Shown here: positions 37,376-59,869 of the stretch, piece by piece | Layout of the letters: each line of letters opens with the position of its first letter | Numbering within the stretch: the first letter of the stretch is position 1 | NCBI GenBank assembly: GCA_030066875.1 | Contig: JASJAS010000008.1 | Span: 1 to 62,472, forward strand | Reading direction: 5' to 3' | DNA length: 62,472 nucleotides | Origin: Acidimicrobiia bacterium | GTDB taxonomy: Bacteria; Actinomycetota; Acidimicrobiia; Spongiisociales; UBA5794 | The notes under the pieces: model-generated | Seen by the model: only the letters and a program-made list of their open reading frames with translations | Database searches by the model: none | Told to the model about the DNA's origin: nothing | Made by a program: the position numbers and the translations under genes

Positions 37376-37425
37376 GTTGAGTCTCGTGCAAGGAACCGTT
37401 GAGCGGACCGTCTCATGGTGTTGAG
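37376..37425. promoter_or_regulatory. Three GTTGAG direct repeats at 22 bp spacing (candidate SARP operator)
   Basis: GTTGAG starts at 37376, 37398 and 37420 in the divergent ACT/SGNH intergenic region. Confidence 0.6.
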
Positions 37426-37442
37426 CAGCATGAGAGGAGAGT

Positions 37443-38180
37443 GTGATGCTCGTGTCTGCAAGCCGACGCAAGGCGGTTGCCCGCGTGGTTTCTGCCCTGG
37501 TGCTCTTGGGCGCGATCTCGTCGTGCAACGGCGATACCGGCCCGATCGCAATCATGCCGATCGGGGACTCGATTACCCATGGTGAGGCGGGCACGCCGTC
37601 CTACCGCTGCTATCTCGACCAGATGCTCACCGAGGCAGGAGTCGCTTTCGACTTAGTCGGCACTCAGTCCATGCCATATTGGGGAACCAGCTACAGGTGT
37701 CCCACGACGTTCGATCAGGACCACGAGGGCTACACAGGCGCCCGCATCCAGGATGTCGTCGAAGACGTCACTGCCAGCGTGGCAGCTCTGCAGCCCGATG
37801 TAGCGCTGATCCACCTCGGAACCAACGATCTAGGAGGGCGGACCGAACCTCTCGAGGACGCCGCCACCCTGGAATCGTTCATCACGGGACTGCAAGCGGT
37901 CAACCCCGACATGGCGATCTTGGTGGCGAAGATCATTCCCTGCAATCCAGGACCTGTCGCCGAGTACGGTTCCGCCTGCACCGCTGAGGTACCGGCATTC
38001 AACGAGCTACTGGATTCGTTCGGACGGCTGTCAACCGCCGACTCGTCGGTGATCGTGGTCGACATGGAGACCGGCTTCGGTTACGACCTGCTCCGCGATA
38101 AGTGGCATCCAACGGACGACGGTGACGAACTGATGGCCACCCGTTGGATGACAGCCCTCAAAGACGAGGGACTCATCTAG
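37443..38180 (+). CDS. SGNH/GDSL hydrolase-family lipoprotein
   Basis: IMPIGDSIT block I, HEGYTG, HLGTND block III, DKWHP block V; ISSC lipobox. Confidence 0.9.
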   Translation: MMLVSASRRKAVARVVSALVLLGAISSCNGDTGPIAIMPIGDSITHGEAGTPSYRCYLDQMLTEAGVAFDLVGTQSMPYWGTSYRCPTTFDQDHEGYTGARIQDVVEDVTASVAALQPDVALIHLGTNDLGGRTEPLEDAATLESFITGLQAVNPDMAILVAKIIPCNPGPVAEYGSACTAEVPAFNELLDSFGRLSTADSSVIVVDMETGFGYDLLRDKWHPTDDGDELMATRWMTALKDEGLI

Positions 38181-38246
38181 CGGCCGGGATCACCCGGGCG
38201 CGGCCAACGGCGTGTAGGTTGGAGCCAGCTTGCGGGGAGGGCTCCG

Positions 38247-41200
38247 ATGCAGAACGGCAGACAAACGCGCGCCTCCGAGCGGCGCGTTGTCACCGCGTTG
38301 TTCTGTGACGTCGTCGGTTCGACCTCCCTTGCGGAGACAATGGATCCGGAGGATTGGGCGGAGATCGTCAACGAAGTCGTCGCCGGTATGGTGGTCTGCA
38401 TTGAGCGCTACGGCGGCACGGTGGCGCAGTTCGCGGGAGACTCGATACTTGCCATCTTCGGCGCTCCCGCCGCGCATGAAGACGATCCGTATCGGGCGGT
38501 GCGTGCCGGGCTCGACATCATCGCCAACGTTGGCCGGGGCTCGGACTATGCCGTTGACATAAGCGTGCGCGCCGGAATCCACACTGGGCTGGTGGTTGTC
38601 GGCGATCTGACCGCCGGCGATCTCAACGTCTATGCAGCCTTGGGTGACACCACGAATGTGGCCGCCCGGATCCAGGCCCTGGCGGAGCCCGGTAGCCTGC
38701 TCGTCTCCGAAGACACGCACCGGCTCGTAGCGAACGACGTGGTGGTCCGGGAGTTGGGCCCGGTCGAAATGAAGGGCAAGAAGGAGCCGGTCGCGGTCTT
38801 TGAGATCAGGGACGCTCGTGACGTCAGTTCGCGCCGACGGGGGATCCCAGGCTTCGAGAGCCCGATGGTGGGCCGGGCCGCCGAGCTGGCACAACTTGTC
38901 GAGATGGTGGGTTACTCCCAAGCAGGATCCGGTCGCGTCGGCGTCATCGTCGGTGATCCAGGCGTCGGCAAGAGCCGGTTGGTCGCCGAACTGCACGACG
39001 TGGTTGTCGGGATTGGCGGGGCGCGCTGGGTGTTGGGCCGCTGTGCGGCCTACGACCAGCACCGGCCGTACCACCTTGCTGCATCCATCGTGCTGGCCCT
39101 CGCCGGAGTGACCGAGAGCGACGATCCCGAGGTCATCAGCAAGGCTCTCGAGGATATTGCCCAGCCCGCCTTCGGCGAAGACAGCGCATCGTTGGGGCAT
39201 TTGCTGCAGCTGCTCGGGCTTGCCGATGGGCATCCGGACGACGACCCGGACGTGCTCCACAAGCAGTACGACCAAGCCCTCTTCCACCTGCTTTCGGCAA
39301 CTGCAGCAGTCAGTAACCCTCTGGTTCTCGTTTGTGAGGATGTCCATTGGGCCGACGCATCCTCGGCCGAGCTGCTGGCAGGGCTTCTCGAGAGGATTCG
39401 GCAGACGACAACGACTCTCATCATCGTGACCCGCCCAGAGCGTCAGTCGCATGGCTGGGAGATGGTGGTCACCCGTGCCGAGCGTGAGCTCGGCGAAGCG
39501 TTCGTGGAAAGCAAACTGCAGCCCCTCGACGATAGGGAGAGTCGGCAACTCGTTGCCAACCTTCTCGAGATCGAATCCCTACCCGCCGACGTGCGCGCTC
39601 TAGTCCTCAGCCGCACCGAAGGCAATCCGTTCTTCATCGAGGAAGTTGTTCGGATGCTGGTCGACCGCGGGCTGATCGAGAAACAGGGGGACCGCTGGGT
39701 CGCAAGCGCGGAGATCAGCACGCTCGATGTGCCGGAGACCCTCCACGGTCTGCTGGCCTCTCGAATCGACTCCCTGCCCGCAGAAGTGCGTCGCGTCGCG
39801 CGCATTGCCGCCGTGATCGGCCGTCGCTTCGAAGCTCGATTGCTGAATGCAGTTCTATCAAAGACTGGTGAGGATCCGGTCCCGGCGGAGCTCAACACGC
39901 TCGAGGCGCGCGGTGTGGTGAAGCTGGTCGCGGTGCAGCCCGAGTTGGCCTTCAGCTTCCGTCATGCCCTCATCCACGATGTCGCCTACGAATCAATCCT
40001 GAGGAAGGAGCGACGCAGTCTTCATGCCCAGGTGGGTGCGGCCCTGGCCGTGCTCTACAACGATCGTTTGGAGGAGCATGCCCCAACCCTGGCTCGCCAC
40101 TACGAGGAGGCAGGAGACCATGATGAGGCTGTTCGCTACCTGGTCATGGCCGGAGGGACGGCCCGGGCCCGACATGCGATGCCGGAGAGCCATCGGTTCT
40201 ACAGCCGGGCGTTGGAGCTGATCGAAACCGATCCTGACAGCCCTGCCGGCCAACGAATCGACGTAGCGTTGTCCATGGCAGCGGCCGGGATGAGGTTCGT
40301 TCCGGGCCTCGAAACCCTGGCCGCGCTTGATGCCGTGCGCGCCGAGGCAGAACAGATCGGTGACCCGGACGTCCTAGCTCGGGTCTATGCACTATCGCTC
40401 GAGGTGCGGGCGATGATGGAGGAAAGTTATGCAGACCCCGGGTTCCGGGAAACGATGGACCGCGCCTACGCCCTCGCGCCGCGTGTCCATCAGCCTGATC
40501 TCAGGGCCTTTCTCGAAGGAATGATGGGCCAGGCGCTGCGTAGTGCTGACGAGTATGCGAAGGCTGCCCAGTTGGTGGGAGGCTCCGTCGGTCCTCTCGA
40601 GGAGGCCGGGCGAGTCGGCGAGGCGGGTTTCAATGCCGCTCTCACGGCCGACGTTGAAGCATCGCGCGGTCGATTCGCAGAGGCCGATCGATGGATCAGG
40701 CATGCTTGCGAATTGGCCGAGGAGAGCGGCAACCCAAACGTCATCGCCGATGTCGAGCTGATGCGAGGTCGGATCGCTGCGGCTCGAGGGGAGTTGGAGA
40801 CGGCGCTTGCCCACACCCAACTAGGAACGGAGACTGCAGAAGGTGCCGGCAATATCGAATGCACCCTCGTCGGCAACTTCCTGATTGCCGACCAGCATCT
40901 GCGGAGCGGCGACGCTGCTGCGGCGATTCCGTATCTCGAGCGTACCTTTGAGCTCGGGGAGTACTGCAACGCCGAAGCCATGGTGGGGCTGGGACAGGCA
41001 TGGCTCGCCACGGCGAAAGCGCGCCTCGGTGAGCTCAATGCGGACGATTATTCGCGGCCTCTCGAGATGGCTCAGGCCGGCGGTAGCCGGAGCGGCGAAG
41101 CCGCAGTGCGCTTGCAGCGCGCGATCGCCGTTGCCGGTGAGCCGAGTTCGAGCTGGAAGCAGGTGGTGGCTGATTTCGAACGGGCCATCGAGTTGTTCGA

Positions 41201-41348
41201 GAGCATCGACGCTCGGCCCGATCAGGCACGGGCAATCCACGCCTATGCGAATGCACTCGAGGCGGCCGGACGCCACGAGGAGAGTCAAGTCCAGCTGAAC
41301 ACGGCAATGGAGATGTTCGGCGCCATGGGTATCAGCCCCGACGGGTAA
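38247..41348 (+). CDS. Class III adenylate/guanylate cyclase - AAA/STAND ATPase - TPR protein
   Basis: VTALFCDVVGST, AQFAGDSILAIFG, LGDTTNVAARIQ; GDPGVGKSRL Walker A, EDVHWAD Walker B, EGNPFFIEE; helical repeat tail. Confidence 0.93.
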   Translation: MQNGRQTRASERRVVTALFCDVVGSTSLAETMDPEDWAEIVNEVVAGMVVCIERYGGTVAQFAGDSILAIFGAPAAHEDDPYRAVRAGLDIIANVGRGSDYAVDISVRAGIHTGLVVVGDLTAGDLNVYAALGDTTNVAARIQALAEPGSLLVSEDTHRLVANDVVVRELGPVEMKGKKEPVAVFEIRDARDVSSRRRGIPGFESPMVGRAAELAQLVEMVGYSQAGSGRVGVIVGDPGVGKSRLVAELHDVVVGIGGARWVLGRCAAYDQHRPYHLAASIVLALAGVTESDDPEVISKALEDIAQPAFGEDSASLGHLLQLLGLADGHPDDDPDVLHKQYDQALFHLLSATAAVSNPLVLVCEDVHWADASSAELLAGLLERIRQTTTTLIIVTRPERQSHGWEMVVTRAERELGEAFVESKLQPLDDRESRQLVANLLEIESLPADVRALVLSRTEGNPFFIEEVVRMLVDRGLIEKQGDRWVASAEISTLDVPETLHGLLASRIDSLPAEVRRVARIAAVIGRRFEARLLNAVLSKTGEDPVPAELNTLEARGVVKLVAVQPELAFSFRHALIHDVAYESILRKERRSLHAQVGAALAVLYNDRLEEHAPTLARHYEEAGDHDEAVRYLVMAGGTARARHAMPESHRFYSRALELIETDPDSPAGQRIDVALSMAAAGMRFVPGLETLAALDAVRAEAEQIGDPDVLARVYALSLEVRAMMEESYADPGFRETMDRAYALAPRVHQPDLRAFLEGMMGQALRSADEYAKAAQLVGGSVGPLEEAGRVGEAGFNAALTADVEASRGRFAEADRWIRHACELAEESGNPNVIADVELMRGRIAAARGELETALAHTQLGTETAEGAGNIECTLVGNFLIADQHLRSGDAAAAIPYLERTFELGEYCNAEAMVGLGQAWLATAKARLGELNADDYSRPLEMAQAGGSRSGEAAVRLQRAIAVAGEPSSSWKQVVADFERAIELFESIDARPDQARAIHAYANALEAAGRHEESQVQLNTAMEMFGAMGISPDG

Positions 41349-41382
41349 GCGAGCAAGAGCCTCCGAGCTCGCTGACGTTTGC

Positions 41383-41829
41383 CTAGGCCGCGTGCCCCAA
41401 CAAGGTCGACTTGATGTGGTCGTTGTCACCGGCCAGCAAGAGCCGATAGACCCATCCCCAGTACCGTCGATGAGCGGCGTCGAAGCGAAGGCGATTCTCC
41501 CATTCTTCGATATATGTGAGGGCGTTCTCCAGGAGCGATTGGATCGCTTCCGCCAGGTTGTCGCCATCGCCGCTGATGGGCGGACCATCGACGAGGACTA
41601 TTTCGACCGCAACACGTTTGCGATCGTCAACGGGTGCCATATGCGCCCGGAAGGGAAATCGTTCCGCGAGTAGGTCTTCGAGGTCTTGTCTGCTGCTGAC
41701 CGCGGTCGAGGTAGACAACGTGGGAGATGTCCCGCAATCGAGCTCGACCGACTGGTGCTCGGCAAGGGCTTCGAGAACCGATCCGATGTCGGGTTGGGGT
41801 AGGTCCGGTCTAACTGCAAGTAGTGTCAT
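41383..41829 (-). CDS. Orphan antitoxin-like protein (actinobacterial PHD/HicB-like fold)
   Basis: C-terminal ISGDGDNLAEAIQSLLENALTYIEEWENRL...HRRYWGWV resembles the actinobacterial HicB-like pattern A.G....EA...........Y..DW..RL....H...W; recognised from memory. Confidence 0.55.
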   Translation of the reverse strand: MTLLAVRPDLPQPDIGSVLEALAEHQSVELDCGTSPTLSTSTAVSSRQDLEDLLAERFPFRAHMAPVDDRKRVAVEIVLVDGPPISGDGDNLAEAIQSLLENALTYIEEWENRLRFDAAHRRYWGWVYRLLLAGDNDHIKSTLLGHAA

Positions 41830-42072
41830 CGCAGTCTGTTCCTTGTGTGGCCCCGACGGCCTGTCGGGGGGCTGCCGTTCAGTCCGTTCTCTCCCATTAC
41901 TGTCGGCAGGTCCATCAGTGGTTTGAGCTCACACGGCTCGTCATTTCCCAAGAGCCCGACCTATCTAGACACAGGTTGTGGGCGGAGCCACACGATTCTC
42001 CGCCCAAATCCCTGCCCGCCTGCTAACGATGGTGGGTGGAGTGCTTCCACGACTGAAAGGAGGGAAGGAATC

Positions 42073-42426
42073 ATGTGGAACGCAGCACTCATGCACAGCT
42101 ACACGAAGCCGATCACCGGCCGTGAAGCAAAGGCGATGGAAGTGTTTGCGGATGCCTTGACGCTGTACGGCAAGCTCGCTGCAGACGGCAGGTGTGCCGA
42201 GCCCGAGGTCTTCCACCACTTCGTCGGCGGCGGGATGTTCATCGTCAAGACCGAGACTCTCGAGATCGCACACGAGATTCTTGATATGGACGACATCCGC
42301 AAGATGCTCGACACGGCCATGTTCACGGTCGAGGACTTCAAAGTGGAGATCATGGTCACCGGCGAGCAGCTGATGAACAACATGTCGCTCTACACCGCTA
42401 TCGGCACGGAGCTGGGCTACATCTGA
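42073..42426 (+). CDS. Conserved-looking hypothetical protein (117 aa)
   Basis: Strong RBS GAAAGGAGGGAAGGA; GREAKAMEVF; followed by a terminator hairpin. Confidence 0.75.
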   Translation: MWNAALMHSYTKPITGREAKAMEVFADALTLYGKLAADGRCAEPEVFHHFVGGGMFIVKTETLEIAHEILDMDDIRKMLDTAMFTVEDFKVEIMVTGEQLMNNMSLYTAIGTELGYI

Positions 42427-42446
42427 TCATCCGCAACTTGACGTAC

Positions 42447-42478
42447 GAGAGAGGCATGGGACGGGGGATGCCTCTCTC
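42447..42478 (+). terminator. Terminator hairpin
   Basis: GAGAGAGGCAT-N10-ATGCCTCTCTC perfect 11 bp stem. Confidence 0.7.
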
Positions 42479-42516
42479 CGTCGTAGGAACCGTGGTCCCA
42501 ACGACCGGGTAATCAC

Positions 42517-44196
42517 TTGAGGCTCAGACGTAAGCTGCCGAATCTCTATCCAATGATTGTTTCGTCGTCTACGCGTGCGGGCGCAGATCGCACCGCGCAC
42601 GACATGGATCGCCTCGAGGAAGTCATTGTTCGGGTCACGACCTGGGTGTCATTGGCCTTCCTCGTGTTGCTCCTTGCCACGGGAGCCATCACCGGTGATG
42701 AGAAGTTCTTCGTGCGTGCGCTCAACCCGCTATTGCCGGGCGCAGCCGGAGTCTGGATGCTGCTCAAAGAGCAGCCGCGAGCCCTAGTGCAGCTCGGCGC
42801 CGGCGCAATCGCGGTGGCGACGACCACCGGCCTGGCCGACATCGCGTCACGGCCGGGGGCACTGCTCGGTTTGCTCAGCATGGGGATCGTGGGTGCGCTG
42901 TTGGTGCGGCGCCACGTGGTGATCTACCTGGTAGTGGCCGGCACAGCGCTGTTCGCCGTATCCATGTGGTGGGCATCGAGCGACCTATCACCACGCGACC
43001 GGGCGGTGGAAGCCGCCGGACCCGTATTCGCCCTACTGCTGACTGCAGGTCTGGTCATCTGGTTGAAGCGGGCCCTGCTAATGGAGGGCGAGCGTCGTCA
43101 CGAGGCGGCTAAGGCGCTTGCCGCTTCTGAAGAGCAGTTCCGGACGGCGTTCGAGACCTCGGCGGCAACGATGGCTCTGGTTCGTGCCAGTGACTTGCAG
43201 TTTCTCAGGGTGAACCAAGCTGGGTGTGAGATGCTCGGATACACCGAGGACGAGCTATTGAGAATGACTGTTCCTGAGGTGATTCATCCCGACGATCAGG
43301 TAGCCAGTCGAACACGTATGAGACAACTGCTGGCAGGAGAAGAGCAGGGTACGAGAGGTGTAGTTCGCTACCTCAAGAGCGACGGGTCGATCGTCTACGG
43401 GCTCGTGTCGGCGGCACTCGTCAGCGATGCGGACGGAAACCCGAGTCATTTCGTGGCGCAACTGGTTGACACAACGGACCAGCATCACGCCGAGCAGCGC
43501 CTCATGGATCTGCTCGCCTCCCGGGACGAGCTCATCGCGTCGGTGTCGCACGAGCTGCGGACACCGCTCACCGCGGTTCTGGGTTATGCGAGTCTGTTGC
43601 TCGAAGAGTTGCCGGGGACACCCGAAGGCTACGAGGACATGCTCCGCGAGATCTTCAGTCAGGGCCGAGACCTCGTCGGAATCATCGAAGACCTGCTCGT
43701 CTTTGCGCAATCCGACTCAGACTCGATAACGGTCAAGCCGGTTCAGCTCGATGTGCGCGATCAGGCGACGCTGGTGCTGGAGTCGCTACGGACCGAGCTC
43801 TCGGTGGATCACATCGATCTGGTTGGCCCGCGGGTCGAAGCATTCGGAGATCCGCTACGAGTCCGGCAGGTGCTGCGGAATCTGCTCTCCAATGCCGTGC
43901 GCTATGGAGGTAGCTCCATCGTCGTCGAGATGTCCGAATCCAATTCCACGGCTCGCATCGTGGTCTCCGACGACGGCTCAGGAGTACCCCGGGAGGATCG
44001 CGAACGGATCTTTGAGCCGTATCAACGGTCCCAGCCGAAAGATGGGTTGACGGCTTCCATTGGCGTTGGGCTTACCGTCGCCCGCCGGCTGGCCCGACTC
44101 ATGAACGGCGACCTCACCTACGAGTATCGGGACGGACGGAGCCGATTCTCGCTCTCGTTGCCGAAGTACCAAGCTCGCAAGCTCCGCTCAGCCTGA
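42517..44196 (+). CDS. Orphan TM-PAS sensor histidine kinase (HisKA)
   Basis: About 6 TM helices, PAS (VNQAGCEMLGY, IHPDD), ASVSHELRTPLT, NLLSNAVRY, DDGSG, GVGL; start uncertain; no adjacent response regulator. Confidence 0.92.
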   Translation: MRLRRKLPNLYPMIVSSSTRAGADRTAHDMDRLEEVIVRVTTWVSLAFLVLLLATGAITGDEKFFVRALNPLLPGAAGVWMLLKEQPRALVQLGAGAIAVATTTGLADIASRPGALLGLLSMGIVGALLVRRHVVIYLVVAGTALFAVSMWWASSDLSPRDRAVEAAGPVFALLLTAGLVIWLKRALLMEGERRHEAAKALAASEEQFRTAFETSAATMALVRASDLQFLRVNQAGCEMLGYTEDELLRMTVPEVIHPDDQVASRTRMRQLLAGEEQGTRGVVRYLKSDGSIVYGLVSAALVSDADGNPSHFVAQLVDTTDQHHAEQRLMDLLASRDELIASVSHELRTPLTAVLGYASLLLEELPGTPEGYEDMLREIFSQGRDLVGIIEDLLVFAQSDSDSITVKPVQLDVRDQATLVLESLRTELSVDHIDLVGPRVEAFGDPLRVRQVLRNLLSNAVRYGGSSIVVEMSESNSTARIVVSDDGSGVPREDRERIFEPYQRSQPKDGLTASIGVGLTVARRLARLMNGDLTYEYRDGRSRFSLSLPKYQARKLRSA

Positions 44197-44294
44197 CCTG
44201 CGTTGGTCGCCCCGAAATGGGGCCCATTCCTCATGCGAACTAGGCTCAGCTGGCCGGGTCGGTACTGGGCAAACGGGATTGGAGGTGACCGCGG

Positions 44295-47569: not shown

Positions 47570-47667
47570 ACTGCCCGGCTCATTTTTGGCACATGCGTAC
47601 TGTAGGCGATGGCCCGCGATGAGCAGTGGAAACGGACCGAAATGGGGTGGTGGAGTACACTGCAGCA

Positions 47668-50600: not shown

Positions 50601-51522
50601 TCTGGTGTTCGACATTGGTGGTCGCGGCGACCAGTCGTTCAATGACGCCGCCGCCGCAGGACTCGACCAGGCCACCGCCGAGCTCGGCATCCGCCCATCC
50701 GAAGCCTCGGCCAACCAGGACGGTTCGAACCGGGAGGAACTGTTGGCACTGCAGGCCGACGAGTCCGATCTGGTGTTTGGTGTCGGTTTCTTGTTTGCCG
50801 AACCGATGTTGAGTGTTGCTGAGGCATACCCAGACGTGAGTTTCGCCATCGTTGACGACTCGTCGATCGATCTGCCCAACGTCGCCAACCTGGTGTTTGC
50901 AGAGGAGGAAGGCTCTTATCTTGTCGGTGTCGCTGCCGCGCTCAACAGTCCGAATCTGCGGGTGGGTTTCATCGGGGGAGTCAACATGGAGTTGATCCAG
51001 CGGTTCGAGGCCGGGTTCACCGCGGGAGTCACCGCGGTCAACCCGCTCGTGACCGTCGATGTGCAGTACCTGACGGAACCCCCCGACTTTGCCGGTTTCA
51101 ATGACCCGGCGGCGGCCCGAGTTGTCGCCGAGGCGATGTATCAACGCGGCGCCGATGTGATCTACCACGCCGCCGGCGGATCCGGGGCCGGGCTGTTCCA
51201 GGCGGCCAAGGACTACTCGGAGGCCAACAACACCAAGGTCTGGGCCATCGGGGTGGACTCCGACCAGTATTTGACAGCGGATGAGGGAGTGCGGCCCTAC
51301 ATCTTGACTTCGATGATGAAACGGGTCGATACCGCGGTGTACACAACAGTCCAGGACTTCGTGAGCGGCAGGTTCACGTCGGGAACCACGGTCCTCGACC
51401 TTTCGGTCGATGGGGTCGGCTACGCCACCAGCGGCGGGTTCGTGAACGCCATCATCGACCAGCTCGAGGACTACAAAACCCAGATCATCTACGGAAGTAT
51501 CCAGGTACCGACTGTGCCTTGA
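47668..51522 (+). CDS. Hanks-type Ser/Thr kinase - acidic linker - TM - two ~230 aa repeats - BMP (PnrA/TmpC-like) binding domain
   Basis: LGRGGF, VAVK, HRDVKPAN, DFG, YAPPE; TM at 48988-49050; repeats at 49114-49812 and 49873-50559; BMP motifs GGRGDQSFND, EEEGSYLVG, IYHAAGGSG, AIGVDSDQ, SMMKRVD; leaderless TACACT-N6-ATG. Confidence 0.93.
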   Translation: MAQSAPLDLGIPGLEDAMLLGRGGFAVVYRAYQPAFRRTVAVKVVSVTEVDELTRERFRRECQAMGLLSEHPSIVTVLEAGFLDDGRPFLVMAYMPEGSLQDRLRQGPLGWQEATRIAVKLAGALGTAHQAGVLHRDVKPANVLVSQYGEPQLADFGIARVAGGQETSSGVITASLSYAPPEIVDGQRPSVASDVYSLGATVHALMTGAAPFWKDREDSIAALLNRVMNHPPRDLREFGVPSNVAEVLELTMAKDPQDRPASAAQFGRLLRLAEDENGLRPTQMTVYKPADEPHPPTPPVEAPPTEVAPSIEDSEDFTDSPTDIVDTDEMLTAAATATAAATSINETPSVDGPPTGTVEQDAAETEVIDEQQTAEVVAPVADGLVAAPDVEASEPVVEPEMAPTATVAAASAAAPPDATTDLPAGPEAGQEPEAPGRRRGLWLGVAAVVALLAVVGGFFLTRGGDAGPIDTTIRSTSDGSSDFEPPPWWTADPVLGSAVLVDHESHVDRNFEQLAVGSGPVTGEQRWVAPTPPAWSPEFYHGWMLVGLSEGEQDPYTEQQIEEKRFFREPASAEGDYAAVVRFTPTQLDGYLLFNLEHNSADGSEHRMFSIDLGTNSSGFAFTTQDGDQSGDDPFQRPIELEVDKSYDLALVATTTGAFRALVWPSGEMAAGVDEVAGIETEAGHEFVTDNWIASIGVGPGSAISIDEFWGFRLPTPGGDAAVPDDEAEPGPTITFDFPQWWLADPDWSRAELVDHETHDSYNWVVGDTAASVWHSPPPPPTWRGTFGGGLMTIATERGESDNIGIPIESKRFWRAPTTSTNEYAAVFRLIVNELGDGFQIFIESGAFDAGFFRNVVLVVDGEGQVFAHYSQGDDDSFLIQDLDNPMKLLPGTSYDVALFAEGGGVFNLRLWPTGQSPQELEDVPGIRLELGDEFVVTGGWDPGMDVVAGASVSIDEYWGFELPGAGDEAPLASADVGLVFDIGGRGDQSFNDAAAAGLDQATAELGIRPSEASANQDGSNREELLALQADESDLVFGVGFLFAEPMLSVAEAYPDVSFAIVDDSSIDLPNVANLVFAEEEGSYLVGVAAALNSPNLRVGFIGGVNMELIQRFEAGFTAGVTAVNPLVTVDVQYLTEPPDFAGFNDPAAARVVAEAMYQRGADVIYHAAGGSGAGLFQAAKDYSEANNTKVWAIGVDSDQYLTADEGVRPYILTSMMKRVDTAVYTTVQDFVSGRFTSGTTVLDLSVDGVGYATSGGFVNAIIDQLEDYKTQIIYGSIQVPTVP
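49114..50559 (+). repeat. Two tandem copies of an unrecognised ~230 aa extracellular domain
   Basis: Shared motifs WW.ADP....A.LVDHE.H, IE.KRF.R.P, YAAV.R, SYD.AL.A, WP.G, GI..E.G.EFV, SIDE(F/Y)WGF.LP. Confidence 0.9.
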
Positions 51523-51577
51523 GCGTGGTGCGGAGGGGTGACGGCTAGTCTCGGCTGTGCGCGTTTGCGGAGGGTGG

Positions 51578-53881
51578 ATGGAGTTCAGGATTCTCGGGTC
51601 GCTCGAGATCGAGGCTTCTGACGGATCACCGCTGCAGGTTTCAGGACCCAAGCAACGCGGTCTTCTTGCATTGCTCGTGATTCATGCGAACGAAGTCCTC
51701 TCCACCGATCGGATCATCGATGCGCTCTGGGGGGAGGAGCCTCCGTCAGGAGCCCTGAACTCGTTGCGCTTTCACATTTCCAAGCTCCGGTCGGCTCTCG
51801 GGGATGAGCAGGAGAGGCTGGCAACCAAGGGGCCCGGCTACGTGTTGCTTGCAAGTCCCGGGGAAGTCGACGCGCAACGATTCGAATCTGCAGTGGCCGA
51901 GGCGGTTGCACTGGTTCCCGACAACCCGGAAGCGGCTGTCGCTCGATATCAAGACGCCATCGAGTTGTGGCGGGGTCCCACCCTCGCCGATTTCGAATAC
52001 GAGGACTTCGCTCGCACCGAAATCGCCCGATTGCGGGAGCTGCGTCTCGCCGCCGTCGAGGGAAGGTTCGAAGCAGAGCTCGCTGCCGGTCGTCATGACG
52101 AGTTGGTAGGAGAATTGCGCACACTGGTTGACGAGCATCCCCTACGCGAGCGGCTCTGGGCCTCACTGATGACTGCGCTGTACCGCAGTGGCCGCCAGGC
52201 GGAAGCTCTCCGGGCGTATCAGGAAGCGCGCTCCACGCTGGGTGATGAACTCGGCATTGAGCCCTCCGAGGAGCTACGTGATCTCGAGGAGAAGGTGCTC
52301 CTCCAGGACGAATCAATCAAGACCCCGGACGCCCCTCGTCGCGCGCACAACCTTCCCGCCAGAGTCAGTCGCTTCGTTGGCCGTGATCAGGAGATCTCGA
52401 CCATCGGCAAGCTGCTTGGTCGGAGCCGGTTGGTAACGCTCATGGGCGTTGGTGGTGTCGGTAAGACGAGTCTTGCTCTCGAGGTTGCCGGGCGTCACGT
52501 CGACGAGTTCCGGGACGGTGTCTGGTTGGTCGACCTGGCGACGGTGACGGACGCTACTGGGGTGTTGGTTGCTGCTGCGGAAGCCCTTCGAGTGCGCACC
52601 CGATCTTCCGAGCACATCCTCGCCGACATCCAGCTGCGGATGGCCAACACCGAAGTGCTTGTCATCTTGGACAACTGCGAACACGTAATCGCTGCCGCGG
52701 CTGATCTCGCCGCCGACCTCCTTGCGAAGTGCCCTGGAGTGAAGATTCTGGCCACAAGCCGGGAACTGCTGTCAGTTCCCGGCGAGATCACCTTTGGTGT
52801 GTCGCCGATGACGCTCGGCGATGACCATGTTGCGGGCGATGCTGTCGCGCTGTTCACCGACCGGCTTGAGGCCTTCTTGCCGGGCACCGGCCTAGGCGAT
52901 GAAGAGCAGCAGACGGTGTACCGGATTTGTCGTGCGGTCGATGGCTTGCCTCTCGCAATCGAGCTCGCCGCCGCCCGCACCCGTGCCCTCTCGCTCGACG
53001 AAGTGGAACGTCGCCTGAGTGACCGCTTTGCACTGCTGGCCGGGGGCAGCCGAACCGCAGCCCCCCGGCAGCGAACTCTGCGGGCAACCATCGACTGGAG
53101 CTACGACTTGCTCTCGGACTCCGAGCAAGGGCTCTTTGCCGTGTTGTCGGTGCTGCCGGGCTCGTTCACCGCCGAAGCTGTGGAAGCGATTGTTCGAGCA
53201 GGCAAGTGGGAAGATGATGCGCTCGACCTGCTCGCAGCCCTGGTAGACAAGTCGTTGGTCGCCCGGATCGGCGGCCGCTACTACCTGCTGCCTACGTTGC
53301 GGCGCTACGCCGCCGGGAAGGTAGACGGGAAAGCGATAGCACGAACGAGGCGCGTCCTGGTCGAACACTATGCCGGACTCGCTTCCCGGCTCGAAGACAG
53401 CTTCTTTGCCACAGAAGAGCCTCAGTTAGCCGAGCACGTTGTCGACGAACGCTCCAATATGCGATCGGCCTTGGCGTGGTCAATGGAAAGCGGTGACACG
53501 GATGCGGCGCTGACTGTTGCTGCGTCTCTGGCCTTCTATTGGATCCGATCGGGCGTTTGGACAGAGGGCTGGTTGAGACGGGGAGTAGGTGCCGGGGACG
53601 ATGTTCCACAGACGGTCCAGCTCCAGGAGGGATTGTTGCTGCTGGAAGGGATTGCGGAACCGGCCGACGCTCTAGCGGCCCTTGCGCAGCTAGTCGAGAA
53701 GGAGGGCGAGGCGGCTAGAGCCACCCGTCTCCTCGGAGCTGCGCACCAGATCCGCCATGACCTCGGCCACGAGCCACCGCGGGCGGAAGACGACCTCGCG
53801 GGCCGTCTGGAGCTCGCTCTAGGCAAGGAGTCGTTTGACGACGAGTGGCAAGCAGGACGAACTGTGGCGCAGCGCCGGTGA
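51578..53881 (+). CDS. SARP (wHTH-BTAD) - STAND ATPase regulator (AfsR-like) with a short C terminus
   Basis: MEFRILGSLE, LVDEHPLRERLW, ALYRSGRQAEAL, HNLPARVSRFVGR, GVGGVGKTSLA, LDNCEHV, DGLPLAIELAAAR. Confidence 0.93.
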   Translation: MEFRILGSLEIEASDGSPLQVSGPKQRGLLALLVIHANEVLSTDRIIDALWGEEPPSGALNSLRFHISKLRSALGDEQERLATKGPGYVLLASPGEVDAQRFESAVAEAVALVPDNPEAAVARYQDAIELWRGPTLADFEYEDFARTEIARLRELRLAAVEGRFEAELAAGRHDELVGELRTLVDEHPLRERLWASLMTALYRSGRQAEALRAYQEARSTLGDELGIEPSEELRDLEEKVLLQDESIKTPDAPRRAHNLPARVSRFVGRDQEISTIGKLLGRSRLVTLMGVGGVGKTSLALEVAGRHVDEFRDGVWLVDLATVTDATGVLVAAAEALRVRTRSSEHILADIQLRMANTEVLVILDNCEHVIAAAADLAADLLAKCPGVKILATSRELLSVPGEITFGVSPMTLGDDHVAGDAVALFTDRLEAFLPGTGLGDEEQQTVYRICRAVDGLPLAIELAAARTRALSLDEVERRLSDRFALLAGGSRTAAPRQRTLRATIDWSYDLLSDSEQGLFAVLSVLPGSFTAEAVEAIVRAGKWEDDALDLLAALVDKSLVARIGGRYYLLPTLRRYAAGKVDGKAIARTRRVLVEHYAGLASRLEDSFFATEEPQLAEHVVDERSNMRSALAWSMESGDTDAALTVAASLAFYWIRSGVWTEGWLRRGVGAGDDVPQTVQLQEGLLLLEGIAEPADALAALAQLVEKEGEAARATRLLGAAHQIRHDLGHEPPRAEDDLAGRLELALGKESFDDEWQAGRTVAQRR

Positions 53882-53884
53882 GCC

Positions 53885-53901
53885 CTCAACAAGTTCTCAA
53901 C
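53885..53901 (+). promoter_or_regulatory. Two CTCAAC direct repeats at 11 bp spacing
   Basis: CTCAAC at 53885 and 53896, upstream of the amino-acid SBP gene. Confidence 0.6.
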
Positions 53902-53926
53902 GGAACCGGCGCAAAGTAAGGGCGTT
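53902..53926 (+). promoter_or_regulatory. Candidate ECF sigma (SigH/SigE/SigR-like) promoter
   Basis: GGAAC-N17-GTT immediately after the CTCAAC repeats. Confidence 0.3.
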
Positions 53927-53949
53927 ACGAAGGTGAAAGGAGATATCTG

Positions 53950-55035
53950 ATGATCCGGCGACTGGCGCTAGTAGCCGTCCTTTTGCTCATCGGGCCTGCT
54001 TGCAGTGGTGACGACCAGACCGTCGCTGAAACCACCACGACTCAGGTGACGACTACGACGGTCGCCGAAGCCGGCCCCACCGAAACCCTGGAGATCGTGC
54101 GCGCCCGGGACCGGCTGGTCTGCGGACACGGTCTAGGGATCCCTGGTTTCGCCGACTTGGGACCGCGCGGCGAGCTCACCGGTCTCATGCTCGATTTCTG
54201 CCGCGCGGTTGCAACTGCGGTTGTCGGAGATGCAGCCAAGGTGGATTGGGTCTCCCTGGAGCCCAGTGAGATGATCGATGTCCTGGCTCAAGGTGATGTG
54301 GACTTACTGACCCACTTCACCACCTGGACCTTCAGTCGGGACAACGCTTCTCCGGTCGATTTCGGTCCAACGTACTTCTTTGATGGACTCGGGATTCTGG
54401 TTGCGGCCGCGGAGCATCAGGCGTCCGATGGCTTGGACTCGCTGCAGGGCGAGACGGTCTGCACCGTCGCAGGGACAACAAGCGAAGCGAACCTACGGTC
54501 GGCGGCTGAACACGCAGGAGTCGTGCTCGACATCCGAACCTTCCCGGACCCCTTCCAGATCTGGGACGCCTTCCGGGCCGGAGAGTGCGAGGCCAACGTA
54601 GGGGAGCGTTCGGTGCTCTTTCTGACGCGCGGCGAGCACTTCGACTCGCCCGAGGATGGGCTGGTGCTCGACCTCGTTCTGGCGCAGGAGCCACTTGGTC
54701 CGGTTTACCGGGAGGGTGACCCCACGTGGGCGGACATCGTCAACTGGACCATGTATGCCCTGCTGGTAGCCGAGGAGAAGGGGCTGACGAGCGAGAATAT
54801 CGAAGAGAGGGTGGCGACGAGCACCGATCCTGAAGTCCTGGCGCTATTCGCTGGCCAAGGGCTCTCGCTGTCTGAGTCGATGGATTTGGATCGCGAGGCC
54901 TTCCGAAGGGTGATCAGGGTTCTCGGCAACTATGACGAGATCTTCGAACGCAACCTCGCCCCGCTGGGTGTGAGTCGAGGGCTGAATGCATTGTGGCGTG
55001 ATGGCGGGCTGATGTTTGCACCGCCGGCGCGCTAG
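53950..55035 (+). CDS. Orphan AapJ/BztA-like amino-acid ABC substrate-binding lipoprotein
   Basis: GPA|C lipobox, DFCRAVATAV, TTWTFSRD, FGPTYFFDG, VCTVAGTTSE, EPLGPV, WADIVNW, GNYDEIFERNL, WRDGGLMFAPP; no permease nearby. Confidence 0.92.
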   Translation: MIRRLALVAVLLLIGPACSGDDQTVAETTTTQVTTTTVAEAGPTETLEIVRARDRLVCGHGLGIPGFADLGPRGELTGLMLDFCRAVATAVVGDAAKVDWVSLEPSEMIDVLAQGDVDLLTHFTTWTFSRDNASPVDFGPTYFFDGLGILVAAAEHQASDGLDSLQGETVCTVAGTTSEANLRSAAEHAGVVLDIRTFPDPFQIWDAFRAGECEANVGERSVLFLTRGEHFDSPEDGLVLDLVLAQEPLGPVYREGDPTWADIVNWTMYALLVAEEKGLTSENIEERVATSTDPEVLALFAGQGLSLSESMDLDREAFRRVIRVLGNYDEIFERNLAPLGVSRGLNALWRDGGLMFAPPAR

Positions 55036-58000
55036 CCCTCCGATCCAGCCTGCCCTTTCGACCAGGCTTCGTACGCCTGCCAGTCGGCTTCGATGAGCGA
55101 GAAGATGGCTTCGACCCCACCAAGTTCGCCGGCGTGGATTTCAGCAATGCCGGCCAGGAAGCTCCCCGGGGTCCCCAACTCGAATATGTACCCGGGGTGG
55201 AGTTCCCGCATTGATCCCGGGCCCGCGGTGCCGATTGCGCCCGGCATAAGGTCCGACCCGTCGAAGCGGAAACGATTCTGCTGCAGCCCGCTGCGAATCA
55301 GCTCCCGGGCGTGTTGCTGAAGGGGGTCTGCAGCGGTAGGGGGGTCATTGTCGAGGTGAGGAAGCGACGACCACAAGCCTGGGTAGTCGGACGATGCGAG
55401 AAAGCGCATCAATTCCCGAATCTCGGGCCTGTCGCGCATCGCCATGATCATTTCGCCACCGCCGAGGATGTAAGGCGACCGTTCTTCGGAGATCGGGGGG
55501 AGCGGAAACATGTCGTAGCCAATGCCGAACTCCAGATCCGGAGGCGGTGCTGGTCCCATGTACATGGCGCAGCCAGGAGGGTCGGAGGCGAACAGGCGAT
55601 GGACCTCCTCGAAGTCGATCAGCAACACGCCTCCTTCGCCTGTTTCCACAAGACCCTCACCAAGTGCGATCTTCGCAAACTCCTCTCCGGCAGACACGAT
55701 GTCCGGATGATCAAACGGTATGTCGTTGCGTATCCACTGGTCGTAGATCGCCGCGCCGGAGTTCGCCAGCACCAGGCTCTCAACCCAGTCGGTTCCCGGC
55801 GCGCCAGTCCAGTGCCCCAGGAATTCGCCCATGCACCATGGGCCCTGGCCATCCGCAGCCAGACGCTCGGTCACCGCCAGCAACTCACCCCAAGTTTGCG
55901 GGACGTCATAGCCGGCGGCGCTGAAGACGTCCGCCCGGTAGAACACGAGGTTCTTGATGCTGAGCTGTGACCACAAACCGAGGGTGGATCCCGAGGTGGC
56001 AGGCCATTCTCCCGATTCGCCGATCGTGACTAGCGAGAGCAAGTAGTCACCGTATCGGTCGCCCAGGGCACCTCGGTCGAGGTACATCCCGATGTCGATC
56101 ACTGTGTCCGTACCAGCGGAGACAATCCGGCCCGGATCGCTTGCGACGACCAGGTCGGGCAAGAACTGTGGTGGGCTGTTCCCGGTAAAAAGCCCAGTCT
56201 CGTATTCGATCTCTATCCCGGTCGATTCTTGGAATTCGCCGAGGGCCGCGGCGAATCCGGAAACCTTGGGTTCGCCCCAGAACGGATCCCGCAGCACTGC
56301 AGTCGTGCCGGCCAGAGGCTGGTTGGGATCTGCGGTGTCACCGTTCGGCTCGACAACGGCCGTCATCAGAACCGTGGTGTCGGAGAGCGAGCATGATGCG
56401 GTCTGGAAGTATGTCAGGCACTCGGAGTTGCCGAAGACCCTACCGTCGGCGGCTAGCGTCAGTGCCTCGGCCACCCACGACAGCGGAACGTCGTATAGCC
56501 CCTGCGGACCGTCCGGGCCGGGACGCACTAACACGGGGCCGCCGTCGGCGGGGTACGGGACTTGCGAGGCTTGCAGCGTCCAATGCATGGCATCCCTGAC
56601 CTCGGGCAGCACCTCACCCGAGATGTCGGCTGTGACTGTTGCGGCCTCGAGGCTCAGCAATGCTGCCAATTGCGGGTCGATCGTCAGTCGATCGAGTGCC
56701 GCAGCAGCCAACTCGCGGGCCCGGGGCGTCGCCTCCACCAATGCCAGCTCCCGTTGCCGATCGGCCTCGCGTCGTTGCGCAACCGCAAAGACCGTAAGCG
56801 TCACCGCCGTCACGATGGCGGTGGCCAGCACGGCGACCAGCCCCCAGGTACGCCGCTTCGACCGCCGCTCGAGCCGTAGTTGTGCCGCTACCCGGGCTCG
56901 CTCGATTTCCTCGGCCTCTTCCCGGGCACCCACACTCGCCTGCAAGAAGGTCCGCTCGGCAGCAGTGAGGGCAATCTCCGAATCCTCCGCCCAGACGGCA
57001 AGCCGGTCGAGGGCGCCACCGCTGAGCAAGTAGTCGTCACTGCGATCCGCTTCGACCCACTCGCGGCATGCCGCAGTGAGTCTGCGGTGGGAGCGAACAT
57101 CATCGCGATGATCCTCGATCCATTGGCGCAGCCGAGACCATTCGCGAAGCAGCGCTTCGTGCGCGACCTCGACGGTCGCCGCTCGGGTCCGCGGATCGCG
57201 ATCGAAAGAGAGCAGACGGTACCTGCCAAAAGCTTCAAGCACGTCCTGTGTTGCCTTATGGAAGCCGAAGATGGAGTCGAGTTCACCCCGCCGCACCCTG
57301 CGCCGAGAGTCCTCGGCGCCCTCCTCGACCGTCACCAGTCTGAGGAAGATTTGACGGGCAGCGGCCTGAGCGGCCGCCGACAAGGATTCGAAGACCTGTT
57401 CGGCCCGGGTCGCCAAAGCTGCCGAGACACCTCCTGAAGCGTCGTAGGCAGCAGCCGGTATCAGGTGCCCGTCGCGGCGCTCGAAGGCCTCGGTCATCGC
57501 ATATTGAACGAGCGGGAGCATCCCGGGCTGACCGGCAACATCTCCGGCGATTCGTTCTGCGAGACCGGGTTCGAGGCCAACGCCAATCGTTCGCGCCGGC
57601 TCGGATATGGCCCGCAGCATCTCTGCTGCGCTGAGTGGCATCACTGTGACCATCTGACTGCGCACCAACTCGCCAAACCCGGCGTACTGAAGTGGCCGGT
57701 CGTAGAAGTCGGCCCGCAACGTGATCACGACGCGAACGCGGTTGCGTTCGTCGGCCACGGTCTCAGCCAGCATGTGGAGAAAGGCAGAGCGGGTCGCTTC
57801 GTCTTCGACCAACGTGAACAATTCCTCGAATTGGTCCACCACCAGCAGCAGCTCTGCGGAGTCATCACGCAGAATGGCCGCCGCTGCTGCAGACAGGACG
57901 GTGAGATCAACGGAGGCGTGTTCGCCGGCTGAGATGCGACGCAATGCCGCGGCAAGTGCATCGAACGGGTACTGACCTGGATACATGGAGACGATGAACC

Positions 58001-59714
58001 ACCGGTTTGATCCGGGCACGGCTCCTCTTCGCAGCGCAGGGATCAGACCCGCGTTGACGGCACTCGATTTCCCGGACCCGCTCGGACCAACCACCGCGAG
58101 GAAGCGACCTGTCGGGCCGCGTTGTGAGAGGAAGTCCACAAGGTCGGCGGTCAGCCTCTCGCGGCCGAAGAACACGCCGGCGTCTCCTTCTGCGAAGGGG
58201 CGTAGGCCCAGATATGGGTTGGGCAGGTCGGCGTCTCCGGCGGGCGTTGGCTTTGCCCGCCCGGCCGCCTCGCCGAAGGACGCGACGAATTCCAAAGCCG
58301 ACATCGATTCGCCGGCCGCTGTCGCTTCGGCCAGTTCGCGGAGAGCCGGGGACGCACCCTCCATGGAGTCGAGGATCGATAGGACGACTCGAGCCAATCC
58401 GGCAACGTCCGCTGACATCACAGCGTCGCGGTCCGTGCCAGTCGCCGCATCCGCGGCGAGGTCACGGGCGACACCGAAGTCCGATAGATAGGCGTTACGA
58501 TCCTCGTCGAAGAGGATGTTCGAGCCTTTCACATCGCCGTGAACGACACCCTGTCGATGGGCGGCGTCCAAACCGCCCCCGACCTGTTCAACCATCCTGA
58601 ACAGCGCATCCCAGGTCCATGCTGAGGTGACGCTGGCAGCGCTGCCTCCACGAAAGAGACGCATCACGATGAAGGCGCCCCGGGGCTCCCTCCAGAAGTC
58701 ATAAAGCGGCACGATATGGGGGTGCTCCAACCTGGCAACCAACTGGGCCTCTGCATCGAAGGCACGGACAAAGGCGGGATCGTCGGCGAACCTGGGCCGG
58801 ATCACCTTCACTGCGACCTCGCGTCCGATTGAGTGCTGGTAGGCGACGTGGACCTCTCCAAAGCGACCGGCACCGATTTGTTCCCTGAGCTCGTACCCAC
58901 GTATGGAGCGCCCGGTAGCCGCAGCGGTCTCGGTGGGCTCGAGAACCGACACTGGACCGGATGGGGTCACGTTGAGAGAGGCGTCCTGCATCAAGATCTG
59001 CCGCTCGAGCTCCTTTAGCTCTGGAGAAGGATCGATCCCTAGTTCCTCGACCAGCGTCCGGCGGGTACGTTCATACGCGCGGAGCGCTTCGGACTGTCGC
59101 CCGGAGCGATACAAGGCAAGCATGAGCTGCCCACCGAACCGCTCTCGGAGCGGGTACTCCTGCACCAGAGTTTCGAGTTCGCCAACCAACCCGCTGTCGT
59201 AACCCAATGCCAGCTCTGCATCGATGCGGTACTCGATCGCGGTGAGCCGAAGTTCGTCGAGGCGGGTGATCTCTGGGCGCAACGCCGGTTCACCGCCGAG
59301 GTCTGCATAGGGTGCGCCCTGCCACAGCTCCAATGCTTCCCAGAGCATCCGGGTAGCGGCTGCCGGGTCGGCATCGATGACTGCTCGCGCCTGCGTCGTG
59401 AGCGCGGAGAAACGATGAGCGTCGATCAGCTCAGGCTCAACCGTGATTACGTAGCCGGGATCCTTGCGGAGCAAGGTCTCCGGTCGAGCGCCCTCGATGG
59501 CGCGCCGCAGGTGCGAAACGTAGGACTGCAGAGTTCGCTTCGCTCCTTCGGCGGGCTCGCCACGCCAAACATCTTCTAGGAGGCGATCGGTCGACACCAC
59601 CTCGTTGGCATGGGCGAGAAGGAGAGCGAGTACCAGGCGCTGCCGCGGGCCACCCAGGGGCAGCCGTTCACCCTCGTGATGGACCTCGAGAGGCCCCAGC
59701 ACCCGAAAATCCAC
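55032..59714 (-). CDS. SARP - degenerate Ser/Thr kinase - nSTAND1-type NTPase - TM - extracellular family-1 (AglE-like) solute-binding domain
   Basis: MDFRVLGPLE/BTAD; VAVK, HGDVKGSN, DFG; NPYLGLRPF, GPSGSGKSS, VVDQFEELF, LRADFY, VAHEALL..W; one TM; SIKNLVFY...VPQTWGEL...PWCMG...TDWVE..YDQW..IPFDHP. Confidence 0.9.
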   Translation of the reverse strand: MDFRVLGPLEVHHEGERLPLGGPRQRLVLALLLAHANEVVSTDRLLEDVWRGEPAEGAKRTLQSYVSHLRRAIEGARPETLLRKDPGYVITVEPELIDAHRFSALTTQARAVIDADPAAATRMLWEALELWQGAPYADLGGEPALRPEITRLDELRLTAIEYRIDAELALGYDSGLVGELETLVQEYPLRERFGGQLMLALYRSGRQSEALRAYERTRRTLVEELGIDPSPELKELERQILMQDASLNVTPSGPVSVLEPTETAAATGRSIRGYELREQIGAGRFGEVHVAYQHSIGREVAVKVIRPRFADDPAFVRAFDAEAQLVARLEHPHIVPLYDFWREPRGAFIVMRLFRGGSAASVTSAWTWDALFRMVEQVGGGLDAAHRQGVVHGDVKGSNILFDEDRNAYLSDFGVARDLAADAATGTDRDAVMSADVAGLARVVLSILDSMEGASPALRELAEATAAGESMSALEFVASFGEAAGRAKPTPAGDADLPNPYLGLRPFAEGDAGVFFGRERLTADLVDFLSQRGPTGRFLAVVGPSGSGKSSAVNAGLIPALRRGAVPGSNRWFIVSMYPGQYPFDALAAALRRISAGEHASVDLTVLSAAAAAILRDDSAELLLVVDQFEELFTLVEDEATRSAFLHMLAETVADERNRVRVVITLRADFYDRPLQYAGFGELVRSQMVTVMPLSAAEMLRAISEPARTIGVGLEPGLAERIAGDVAGQPGMLPLVQYAMTEAFERRDGHLIPAAAYDASGGVSAALATRAEQVFESLSAAAQAAARQIFLRLVTVEEGAEDSRRRVRRGELDSIFGFHKATQDVLEAFGRYRLLSFDRDPRTRAATVEVAHEALLREWSRLRQWIEDHRDDVRSHRRLTAACREWVEADRSDDYLLSGGALDRLAVWAEDSEIALTAAERTFLQASVGAREEAEEIERARVAAQLRLERRSKRRTWGLVAVLATAIVTAVTLTVFAVAQRREADRQRELALVEATPRARELAAAALDRLTIDPQLAALLSLEAATVTADISGEVLPEVRDAMHWTLQASQVPYPADGGPVLVRPGPDGPQGLYDVPLSWVAEALTLAADGRVFGNSECLTYFQTASCSLSDTTVLMTAVVEPNGDTADPNQPLAGTTAVLRDPFWGEPKVSGFAAALGEFQESTGIEIEYETGLFTGNSPPQFLPDLVVASDPGRIVSAGTDTVIDIGMYLDRGALGDRYGDYLLSLVTIGESGEWPATSGSTLGLWSQLSIKNLVFYRADVFSAAGYDVPQTWGELLAVTERLAADGQGPWCMGEFLGHWTGAPGTDWVESLVLANSGAAIYDQWIRNDIPFDHPDIVSAGEEFAKIALGEGLVETGEGGVLLIDFEEVHRLFASDPPGCAMYMGPAPPPDLEFGIGYDMFPLPPISEERSPYILGGGEMIMAMRDRPEIRELMRFLASSDYPGLWSSLPHLDNDPPTAADPLQQHARELIRSGLQQNRFRFDGSDLMPGAIGTAGPGSMRELHPGYIFELGTPGSFLAGIAEIHAGELGGVEAIFSLIEADWQAYEAWSKGQAGSEG

Positions 59715-59841
59715 GGCTCCCTTTCCGCGGTCGCGACCTGCCAGATGTTAACGGTTGAGTCGGATTCCTCTGCTTCGCATCCGGGTCTCAGTGCTCGTCG
59801 ACACTGGAACGGGTCCTCGTAGCCCAGAACAGCTCCGGGGT

Positions 59842-59869
59842 CTCAACATCCTCTCAACACCTGACCAAC
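59842..59869 (+). promoter_or_regulatory. Three phased (C/A)(T/C)CAAC repeats at 11 bp spacing
   Basis: CTCAAC 59842, CTCAAC 59853, ACCAAC 59864; an additional GTTGAG at 59754, 40 nt upstream of the SARP start. Confidence 0.65.

Follow-up and report, generated by a model that had tools for sequence, protein, structure and literature searches.

Contig JASJAS010000008.1 of the Acidimicrobiia bacterium assembly GCA_030066875.1 (3.16 Mb in 171 contigs, 62.7% GC, 81% complete), hereafter referred to as the window over its whole length of 62,472 nucleotides (contig C9 of our numbering), carries two genes for regulators of the SARP (Streptomyces antibiotic regulatory protein) type and three intergenic sites, designated A, B, and C, with helically phased copies of the hexamer CTCAAC. 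We consider it likely that these units are SARP boxes with a conserved core CAACA, through which one of the two regulators, SARP2, would activate the gene of a secreted zincin via site B and, most likely, the gene of a solute-binding protein (SBP) via site A. The SARP-box mechanism is already known; the new part is a multi-copy module that pairs a STAND-type receptor with a zincin.

Site B (59842..59880, forward strand) consists of four units in 11-bp steps, namely CTCAAC at 59842 and 59853, ACCAAC at 59864, and a degenerate CGCAAG at 59875, the last of which was absent from the original prediction. Site A (53885..53901, forward strand) contains two exact CTCAAC units at 53885 and 53896, 11 bp apart. 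Site C (37376..37425, no strand assigned) comprises three exact GTTGAG, that is, CTCAAC on the minus strand, at 37376, 37398, and 37420 with a spacing of 22 bp. A recheck of the window letters reproduced every repeat coordinate given in that prediction, and all sites are located between called open reading frames (ORFs), as it had claimed. The presence of two true SARP genes was also borne out by Pfam, with scores of 161.8 bits (BTAD) and 48.4 bits (Trans_reg_C) for SARP1 (51557..53881, forward strand, likely start at 51578) and of 152.2 and 43.9 bits for SARP2 (55032..59714, reverse strand), all above the curated cut-offs. The ORF at 38247-41348 encodes a cyclase-AAA-TPR protein and is not a SARP.

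Direct repeats spaced by 11 or 22 bp, the 3' one lying 8 bp upstream of the -10 element, are typical of SARP targets; the afs box spans positions -40..-19, and the -10 element of afsS is the suboptimal hexamer CACTGT (PMC10936776). The spacing in the window is 11 bp at sites A and B and 22 bp at site C. Relative to the A of the zincin start codon (ATG 59903, +1), the units of site B occupy positions -61..-56, -50..-45, -39..-34, and -28..-23. The site ends 10 nt upstream of a -10-like hexamer, GACGCT (59891..59896, forward strand), which is followed by six nucleotides (gcagat) and the ATG. Sites A and B share the distance of the last hexamer to the predicted -10, namely 10 nt, or 8-9 nt if the unit is taken as 7-8 nt long, and this agrees with the SARP position, which site C does not show. 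The -10-like hexamers, GACGCT at site B and CAAAGT at site A, are suboptimal, the -35 element is weak or absent, and no sigma-70 consensus promoter was found in the three intergenic regions. The zincin gene lacks a Shine-Dalgarno sequence, and ATG 59903 is the sole start codon of its ORF. Leaderless actinobacterial promoters, as seen in start-site maps of Mycobacterium and Streptomyces, have an ANNNT -10 element ending 7 nt before the start codon, and the same pattern was found in GACGCT-gcagat-ATG (59891-59905). The zincin promoter has no -35 element and is probably activator-dependent, its mRNA being probably leaderless with a predicted start at the A of ATG 59903.

The zincin gene (59903..60577, forward strand) is divergent from SARP2 and encodes a secreted gluzincin-like protein of 224 amino acids with a signal peptide and the HEXXH-type motif HELGH. 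Among 22 homologues, no variation was seen at H114, E115, H118, or E160, and two cysteines are conserved as well. No Pfam family matched the protein, and the best Protein Data Bank fold matches of its AlphaFold2 model (pLDDT 82) were weak and generic for zincins (E at least 2.8e-3, TM score at most 0.37). The family has 7 copies in this genome, and relatives together with GTDB genomes contribute about 150 loci. A divergent neighbour with a winged helix-turn-helix (wHTH) and a BTAD domain was found on contigs C78 and C55 of this genome, at 22 loci among 61 relatives, and for 39 of the 83 zincin matches in GTDB, where the genomes are almost all metagenome-assembled genomes of Acidimicrobiia. The identity of the module as a known anti-phage defence system was considered and rejected: PADLOC models matched neither the zincin nor SARP1, and the SARP2 kinase segment hit generic kinase models only. 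Tandem zincin pairs occur at three loci of relatives (L061, L093, and L104), each copy having its own phased-repeat promoter with a differing box type (TTGAC and CCTAATCG at L093).

The family was aligned at the ATG with which the signal peptide begins; its 86 unique promoters are mutually related and not independent. A divergent SARP gene accompanies 48 of them and a downstream or tandem one 4 more (52/86). The hexamer NANNNT is located exactly 6 nt before a start codon at 48/64 and 57/83 loci, where about 0.035 per start codon would be expected by chance (our base-composition estimate, with several candidate starts scanned per ORF), and this start is the signal-peptide ATG at 42 loci of the first set (48) and at every locus of the second (57). 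The consensus across the 86 promoters is CGGACGGTGcGGgC-ATG, and the unselected positions in C-G-G-A-C-G-G-T-G-c-G-G-g-C-ATG are 60-87% conserved. Upstream of this element, matches of 5-mers within the same promoter numbered 241 at a lag of 11 and 93 at a lag of 22, most other lags giving 2-19; secondary peaks of 23-42 at lags 9, 20, 31, and 33 are consistent with a 9-bp spacing now and then and with a third helical turn. A lag-11 repeat is present in 66 of the 86 promoters versus about 4/86 at lags 12-17, and in a control set of 991 upstream regions about 4 self-matches per lag were counted after scaling to 40 promoters. The repeat cores keep one register family-wide, with peaks near -58, -47, and -36, each scored against the base 11 bp downstream, while their sequence varies by module: CTCAAC in the window, CACTAAC on C78, CTGCAC on C55, and elsewhere cTTGAC, CCTAATCG, CTTAAG, YCACATG, TTCCAGCG, and others. 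A natural control is provided by contig C77, on which a zincin paralogue follows a LuxR-type STAND gene and has no 11-bp repeats in the 95 nt upstream.

Several further features of these promoters were recorded. The regulator upstream of the zincin on C77 (2042-5332, locus L191) has the architecture AAA_16...GerE with a STAND module, and the promoter there reads GACGGT-gcgggc-ATG and contains GAAyTGGGTG twice at 23-bp spacing. In 16 of the 86 promoters, the six-nucleotide stretch that separates the -10 from the ATG is matched by a complement of 5 nt or more just before the -10, against 5.6 +/- 2.2 promoters in permutations (free register), and the changes are compensatory, as in GCCCCG/CGGGGC, GCCTCC/GGAGGC, and CCCCC/GGGGG (e.g., G000:C65, L058, L072, L093). 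When the register was fixed, an inverted repeat around the -10 was not significant. The window promoter is not among the 16; it has GCCCG-N8-CGGGC (59872-59889) directly upstream of the zincin -10. Outside the window, TGTCCG-N5-TGTCCG was found in four intergenic regions (C55:4909, C55:9751, C77:5561, and C42:1945); two of the repeats are followed by CATAAT or CATATT after 9 nt, one of the four regions precedes the LuxR-STAND/zincin pair of C77, and the element looks like another activator box, resembling the TGTCGG promoters of the PafBC type.

The units of site B are conserved in orthologues. Compared with the promoters of L106, L105, and L037, 16 of 20 positions of the CAACA cores are invariant, while only 3 spacer positions are (T12, C22, and C45). 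L106, with a zincin 52% identical and a divergent SARP2-type gene, has the promoter CTCAACaatctCTCAACagtccCCAGCA...GACGCTgcggatATGCAGCAT, and L105, with a zincin 55% identical, has TCCAAC, TGCAAC, and CCCAAC at 11 bp. The repeat type also follows the recognition helix of the neighbouring SARP. The SARP2 helix AKRTLQSYVSHLRR is common to L106, which likewise has CTCAACA boxes, and the form A(K/R)RTLQSY(V/I)SHLRR shared by these two corresponds to CTCAACA. Besides this group, five or more helix/box groups were distinguished, including ARNSLQxMxSNLRK with YCACATG, AxRSIQTYVSNLR with TTGAC, KQNALWVHVSNLR with CTTAAG, and AANSLQSYVSRLR with CTGCAC. Such covariation fits a direct readout of the box by the helix. 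Considering the module logic, in which the divergent SARP serves the zincin, and the L106 case, the boxes of site B are most likely read by SARP2 only. The zincin gene, already proposed as a target, was upheld as the predicted one on strong comparative grounds, namely the register conserved in 86 promoters, the core conservation in orthologues, and the helix/box covariation. The supposed likeness of TTGAG to the ActII-ORF4/DnrI core TCGAG, which differs by one base, was given no weight, since the repeats of related modules are quite dissimilar.

SARP2 has a wHTH-BTAD module followed by a truncated protein kinase, an nSTAND1 domain, a likely membrane span (a hydrophobic stretch judged by eye), and an SBP_bac_1 domain. 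The kinase match (residues ~274-427) covers Pfam profile positions 1-152 of 263 and ends soon after the DFG motif. A kinase domain truncated in this way was also seen in the zincin-paired SARPs of L189, L190, and L106, and window SARP2 has HGD for HRD; it may be a pseudokinase or a nucleotide-binding module. The zincin-paired SARPs share the core wHTH-BTAD-half kinase-nSTAND1, and their sensors vary, being SBP_bac_1 in the window and WD40 on C78. SARP1 is an AfsR-like wHTH-BTAD-AAA protein without a kinase domain, its nSTAND1 match being below the cut-off.

A mechanism can be proposed in which SARP2 would act as a one-polypeptide receptor with its DNA-binding wHTH-BTAD part, half kinase, and nSTAND1 NTPase on one side of the membrane span and the solute-binding domain outside. 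Activation would lead to oligomerisation through the STAND module. The protein could fill the two perfect distal units of site B first and then the degenerate proximal ones at -39 and -28, where it would substitute for the contact between the -35 element and sigma region 4, as AfsR does at the afs box. Most likely, it would also activate the SBP gene through the perfect units of site A at -39 and -28.

The gene downstream of site A (53950..55035, forward strand) encodes a lipoprotein-type SBP_bac_3 protein, has a Shine-Dalgarno sequence, and is convergent with SARP2. Site A begins 4 nt past the SARP1 stop codon, and relative to a predicted start near 53924 its units are at -39..-34 and -28..-23, the same geometry as in site B. 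The candidate -10, CAAAGT (53912..53917, forward strand), identified by sequence inspection, has A at position 2 and T at position 6 and lies 10 nt after the second unit. When metagenomes were scanned with the SBP, a single useful orthologue was obtained (L037, contig JAAUYE010149114.1), the other matches being paralogues of 30-47% identity. The L037 protein is 60% identical, the convergent SARP2 C-terminus is kept, and units CTCAACAgttCCCAACA precede the gene. In two genomes the SBP is thus linked to the same box, and it is a probable target, as was originally suggested, on the grounds of the site B geometry and of the units conserved in L037. The L037 region upstream of the SBP aligns with site B promoters down to GACCCT-N5-ATGCAGCAA, after which a stop follows 14 codons; this full zincin-type promoter copy (L037:226-330) corresponds to a relic of a zincin start or to a small leaderless ORF. 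In the window, GGAAC directly follows the second CTCAAC and CGTT lies 16 nt downstream (53902-53927), which we take to resemble the consensus of extracytoplasmic function (ECF) sigma factors. An ECF-type reading of site A was discarded: it rests on this resemblance to a consensus, is not shared by L037, and leaves almost no leader before the Shine-Dalgarno sequence.

Several observations weigh against this interpretation. In site B, the degenerate units rather than the perfect ones occupy the canonical SARP positions. The helix/box covariation is confounded with the shared descent of orthologous modules, and the conserved GACGGT may belong to an alternative (e.g., ECF-type) sigma factor and not to the principal one. 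Phased repeats without a SARP gene within 1.5-3 kb were found in 25-30 of the 86 promoters, and adjacency is therefore not obligatory. Site A directly abuts SARP1, not SARP2. One relative (G010, 82% complete) has a SARP1 orthologue and CAACA-type boxes, and no SARP2 orthologue was found in it. Site C has no promoter geometry, as no A-N3-T -10 hexamer lies at the SARP distance on either strand.

The position of site A immediately behind SARP1 points to another possibility, that SARP1, by itself or jointly with SARP2, reads sites A and C and that SARP2 then serves site B only. This is unlikely, although G010 speaks for it: its SARP1 orthologue (76% identity) adjoins an ACT operon with CTCAAT-N4-CTCAAC upstream, and both G010 and G006 have CAACA-type zincin promoters and no SARP2 orthologue above ~51% identity. 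On the other hand, the spacing of the G010 units is 10 bp instead of 11, and no -10 is present at the SARP distance. The SARP1 recognition helix ALNSLRFHISKLRS is unlike that of SARP2 and L106 and resembles that of L055, whose boxes are CCTAAC, and two different helices would be required to have the same specificity. Finally, L037 keeps the SBP box together with the SARP2 synteny, and no SARP1 is present upstream on that short contig. Convergence of the SARP1 orthologue with the ACT gene on G010:C268 (L033) differs from the window, in which signalling genes (SGNH, cyclase, histidine kinase, FHA-ABC, and kinase-Bmp) fill about 14 kb between ACT and SARP1.

Direct repeats of 11 bp near -35 are also typical of OmpR/PhoB-family boxes, and together with the repeat-bearing promoters that have no SARP gene nearby they would be consistent with binding of a factor encoded elsewhere, such as a response regulator of this type, the adjacency of SARP genes being coincidental. 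We regard this as quite improbable: a SARP gene adjoins 52/86 promoters, the repeat type follows the recognition helix of the adjacent SARP, module-specific repeats would demand equally many unlinked regulators, and the proximal unit at -28 (~8-10 nt from the -10) is at the SARP position and not at the class II position of -41.5. There is hardly any likelihood left for the view that the repeats are functionless, whether as chance or compositional coincidences or as leftovers of local duplication, and for sites A and B this view is already disfavoured. It is true that CTCAAC is over-represented in the window generally (50 copies versus 30.2 +/- 4.9 expected, the majority of them coding), that site C has neither promoter geometry nor an orthologue, and that three intergenic regions with a common phased hexamer are ordinary genome-wide, the usual shuffled maximum being 3-4 (genome-wide statistics are based on gene calls from our own crude ORF scorer). 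But three such regions inside 25 kb occurred in none of 200 shuffles, with a maximum of 2, the sequence between copies is unrelated, the cores are conserved in orthologues while the spacers drift, and the register is family-wide. The exact dyad CTCAAC-N5-CTCAAC was found three times in the 3.16 Mb genome on both strands, twice in the window and once inside a gene (C151), and the only two pairs spaced by 22 bp both come from the triple at 37.4 kb. As to an enrichment of the dyad near SARP genes, two of the three genomic copies are at this locus, and none is near the other 7 BTAD genes of the genome, so the motif is locus-specific and not a general SARP motif.

The three exact copies of site C at 22-bp spacing are very unlikely by chance. 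The intervening sequence is unrelated, only CCGTTGAG being common to the 22-bp units; the repeats are therefore not recent tandem duplications, and such an origin was ruled out. An RNA element was likewise rejected (no Rfam match, fold z-score of -0.21), and no convincing small leaderless ORF was found after the site. Site C is probably an extra candidate binding site of the same protein, SARP2, with its units on one helix face. Neither flanking gene is supported as its target, contrary to the proposal that the ACT or SGNH gene is controlled from here, considering the absence of a -10 at the SARP distance. The ACT-domain gene (36883..37266, reverse strand) has its own leaderless-type promoter, TAACCT (37278-37273)-N6-ATG, about 100 nt downstream of the repeats; TAAyCT-N6-ATG is conserved before ACT in G006, G010, and G018, and upstream of the ACT orthologues (86%, 80%, and 73% identity) the genes are different ones and the site C repeats are missing. 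For the SGNH/GDSL lipoprotein gene (37443 or 37446 to 38180, forward strand), the Shine-Dalgarno sequence GAGGAG starts 8 nt past the final repeat, and no orthologue was found in 60 relatives.

The suggested autoregulation of SARP2 is likewise unsupported. The single GTTGAG at 59754..59759 (CTCAAC on the reverse strand), 40 nt before the SARP2 start and directly upstream of TAACAT, is compatible with chance, since about 0.12 copies are expected per 188-bp intergenic region. Thus, from the local SARP regulon of the original prediction, the repeats as SARP boxes, the zincin as a target, and the SBP as a probable target could be retained, while the ACT/SGNH target and autoregulation found no support.

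The arrangement resembles that of AfsR at the afs box of afsS in Streptomyces coelicolor and those of ActII-ORF4, DnrI, and RedD in having repeats one or two helical turns apart. As in promoters of AfsR and other SARPs, the 3' unit is ~8-10 nt from a suboptimal -10, no usable -35 is present, and the afs-box span of -40..-19 includes the positions of the window units at -39 and -28 (PMC10936776). AfsR also has a wHTH and BTAD followed by a STAND-type NTPase. Unlike AfsR promoters, those described here have not two but four to six phased units, of which the distal ones are the best copies, a predicted leaderless mRNA, and a family-specific -10, GACGGT. The regulator differs from AfsR in having a half kinase, nSTAND1 rather than NB-ARC/TPR, a membrane span, and an extracytoplasmic sensor, and its predicted target in a host of the class Acidimicrobiia is a secreted zincin and not an antibiotic pathway or AfsS. 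Coupling of a SARP module to Ser/Thr-kinase-type signalling and a sensor is shared with EmbR/PknH and other actinobacterial "large SARP" proteins, but here it is contained in one fused polypeptide with the kinase truncated after the DFG region and no FHA domain. Helically phased tandem direct repeats, with strong distal and weak proximal sites that suggest cooperative filling, are known from the OmpR F1-F3 sites and pho boxes, whereas the reader here is a SARP (wHTH and BTAD) without a receiver domain, and the proximal site is closer to the -10 than in class II promoters. Actinobacterial leaderless promoters share the A-N3-T hexamer at -12..-7 from the ATG, the lack of a Shine-Dalgarno sequence, and a signal peptide beginning with the first codon; the differences are that GACGGT with conserved G/C flanks replaces TANNNT and that the start is predicted.

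More tentatively, Acidimicrobiia may carry diversified and insulated "transcriptional NLR-like" modules (named after nucleotide-binding leucine-rich repeat receptors), each composed of an nSTAND1 receptor with a variable sensor, a fused SARP that reads a private 11-bp code, and its own secreted mini-zincin. The sensors would be a solute-binding ectodomain, a WD40 propeller, or another domain, and the boxes would stand in a fixed register before a leaderless promoter, through which the SARP would turn on the zincin. The receptor of the window would also have recruited the SBP gene and perhaps the third site.

To our knowledge, SARPs have been described almost exclusively as switches of Streptomyces antibiotic pathways. 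In a full-text literature search, no paper was found that deals with SARPs in Acidimicrobiia or that links SARPs, nSTAND1, and zincins. The SARP promoter mechanism seems to serve here a multi-copy circuit from sensor to secreted protease, present several times per genome in an uncultured class. For the zincin genes of these genomes, the analysis offers concrete predicted start codons and promoters. Each copy has its own repeat in one fixed geometry, and the set therefore supplies many cases in which a recognition helix and a DNA box are naturally paired. These pairs make the specificity of SARPs, cross-talk between paralogues, and the multi-unit boxes of an oligomerising STAND regulator directly testable. 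If the proposed pairing is true, dozens of natural helix/box pairs would represent a readable recognition code for SARP winged helices.

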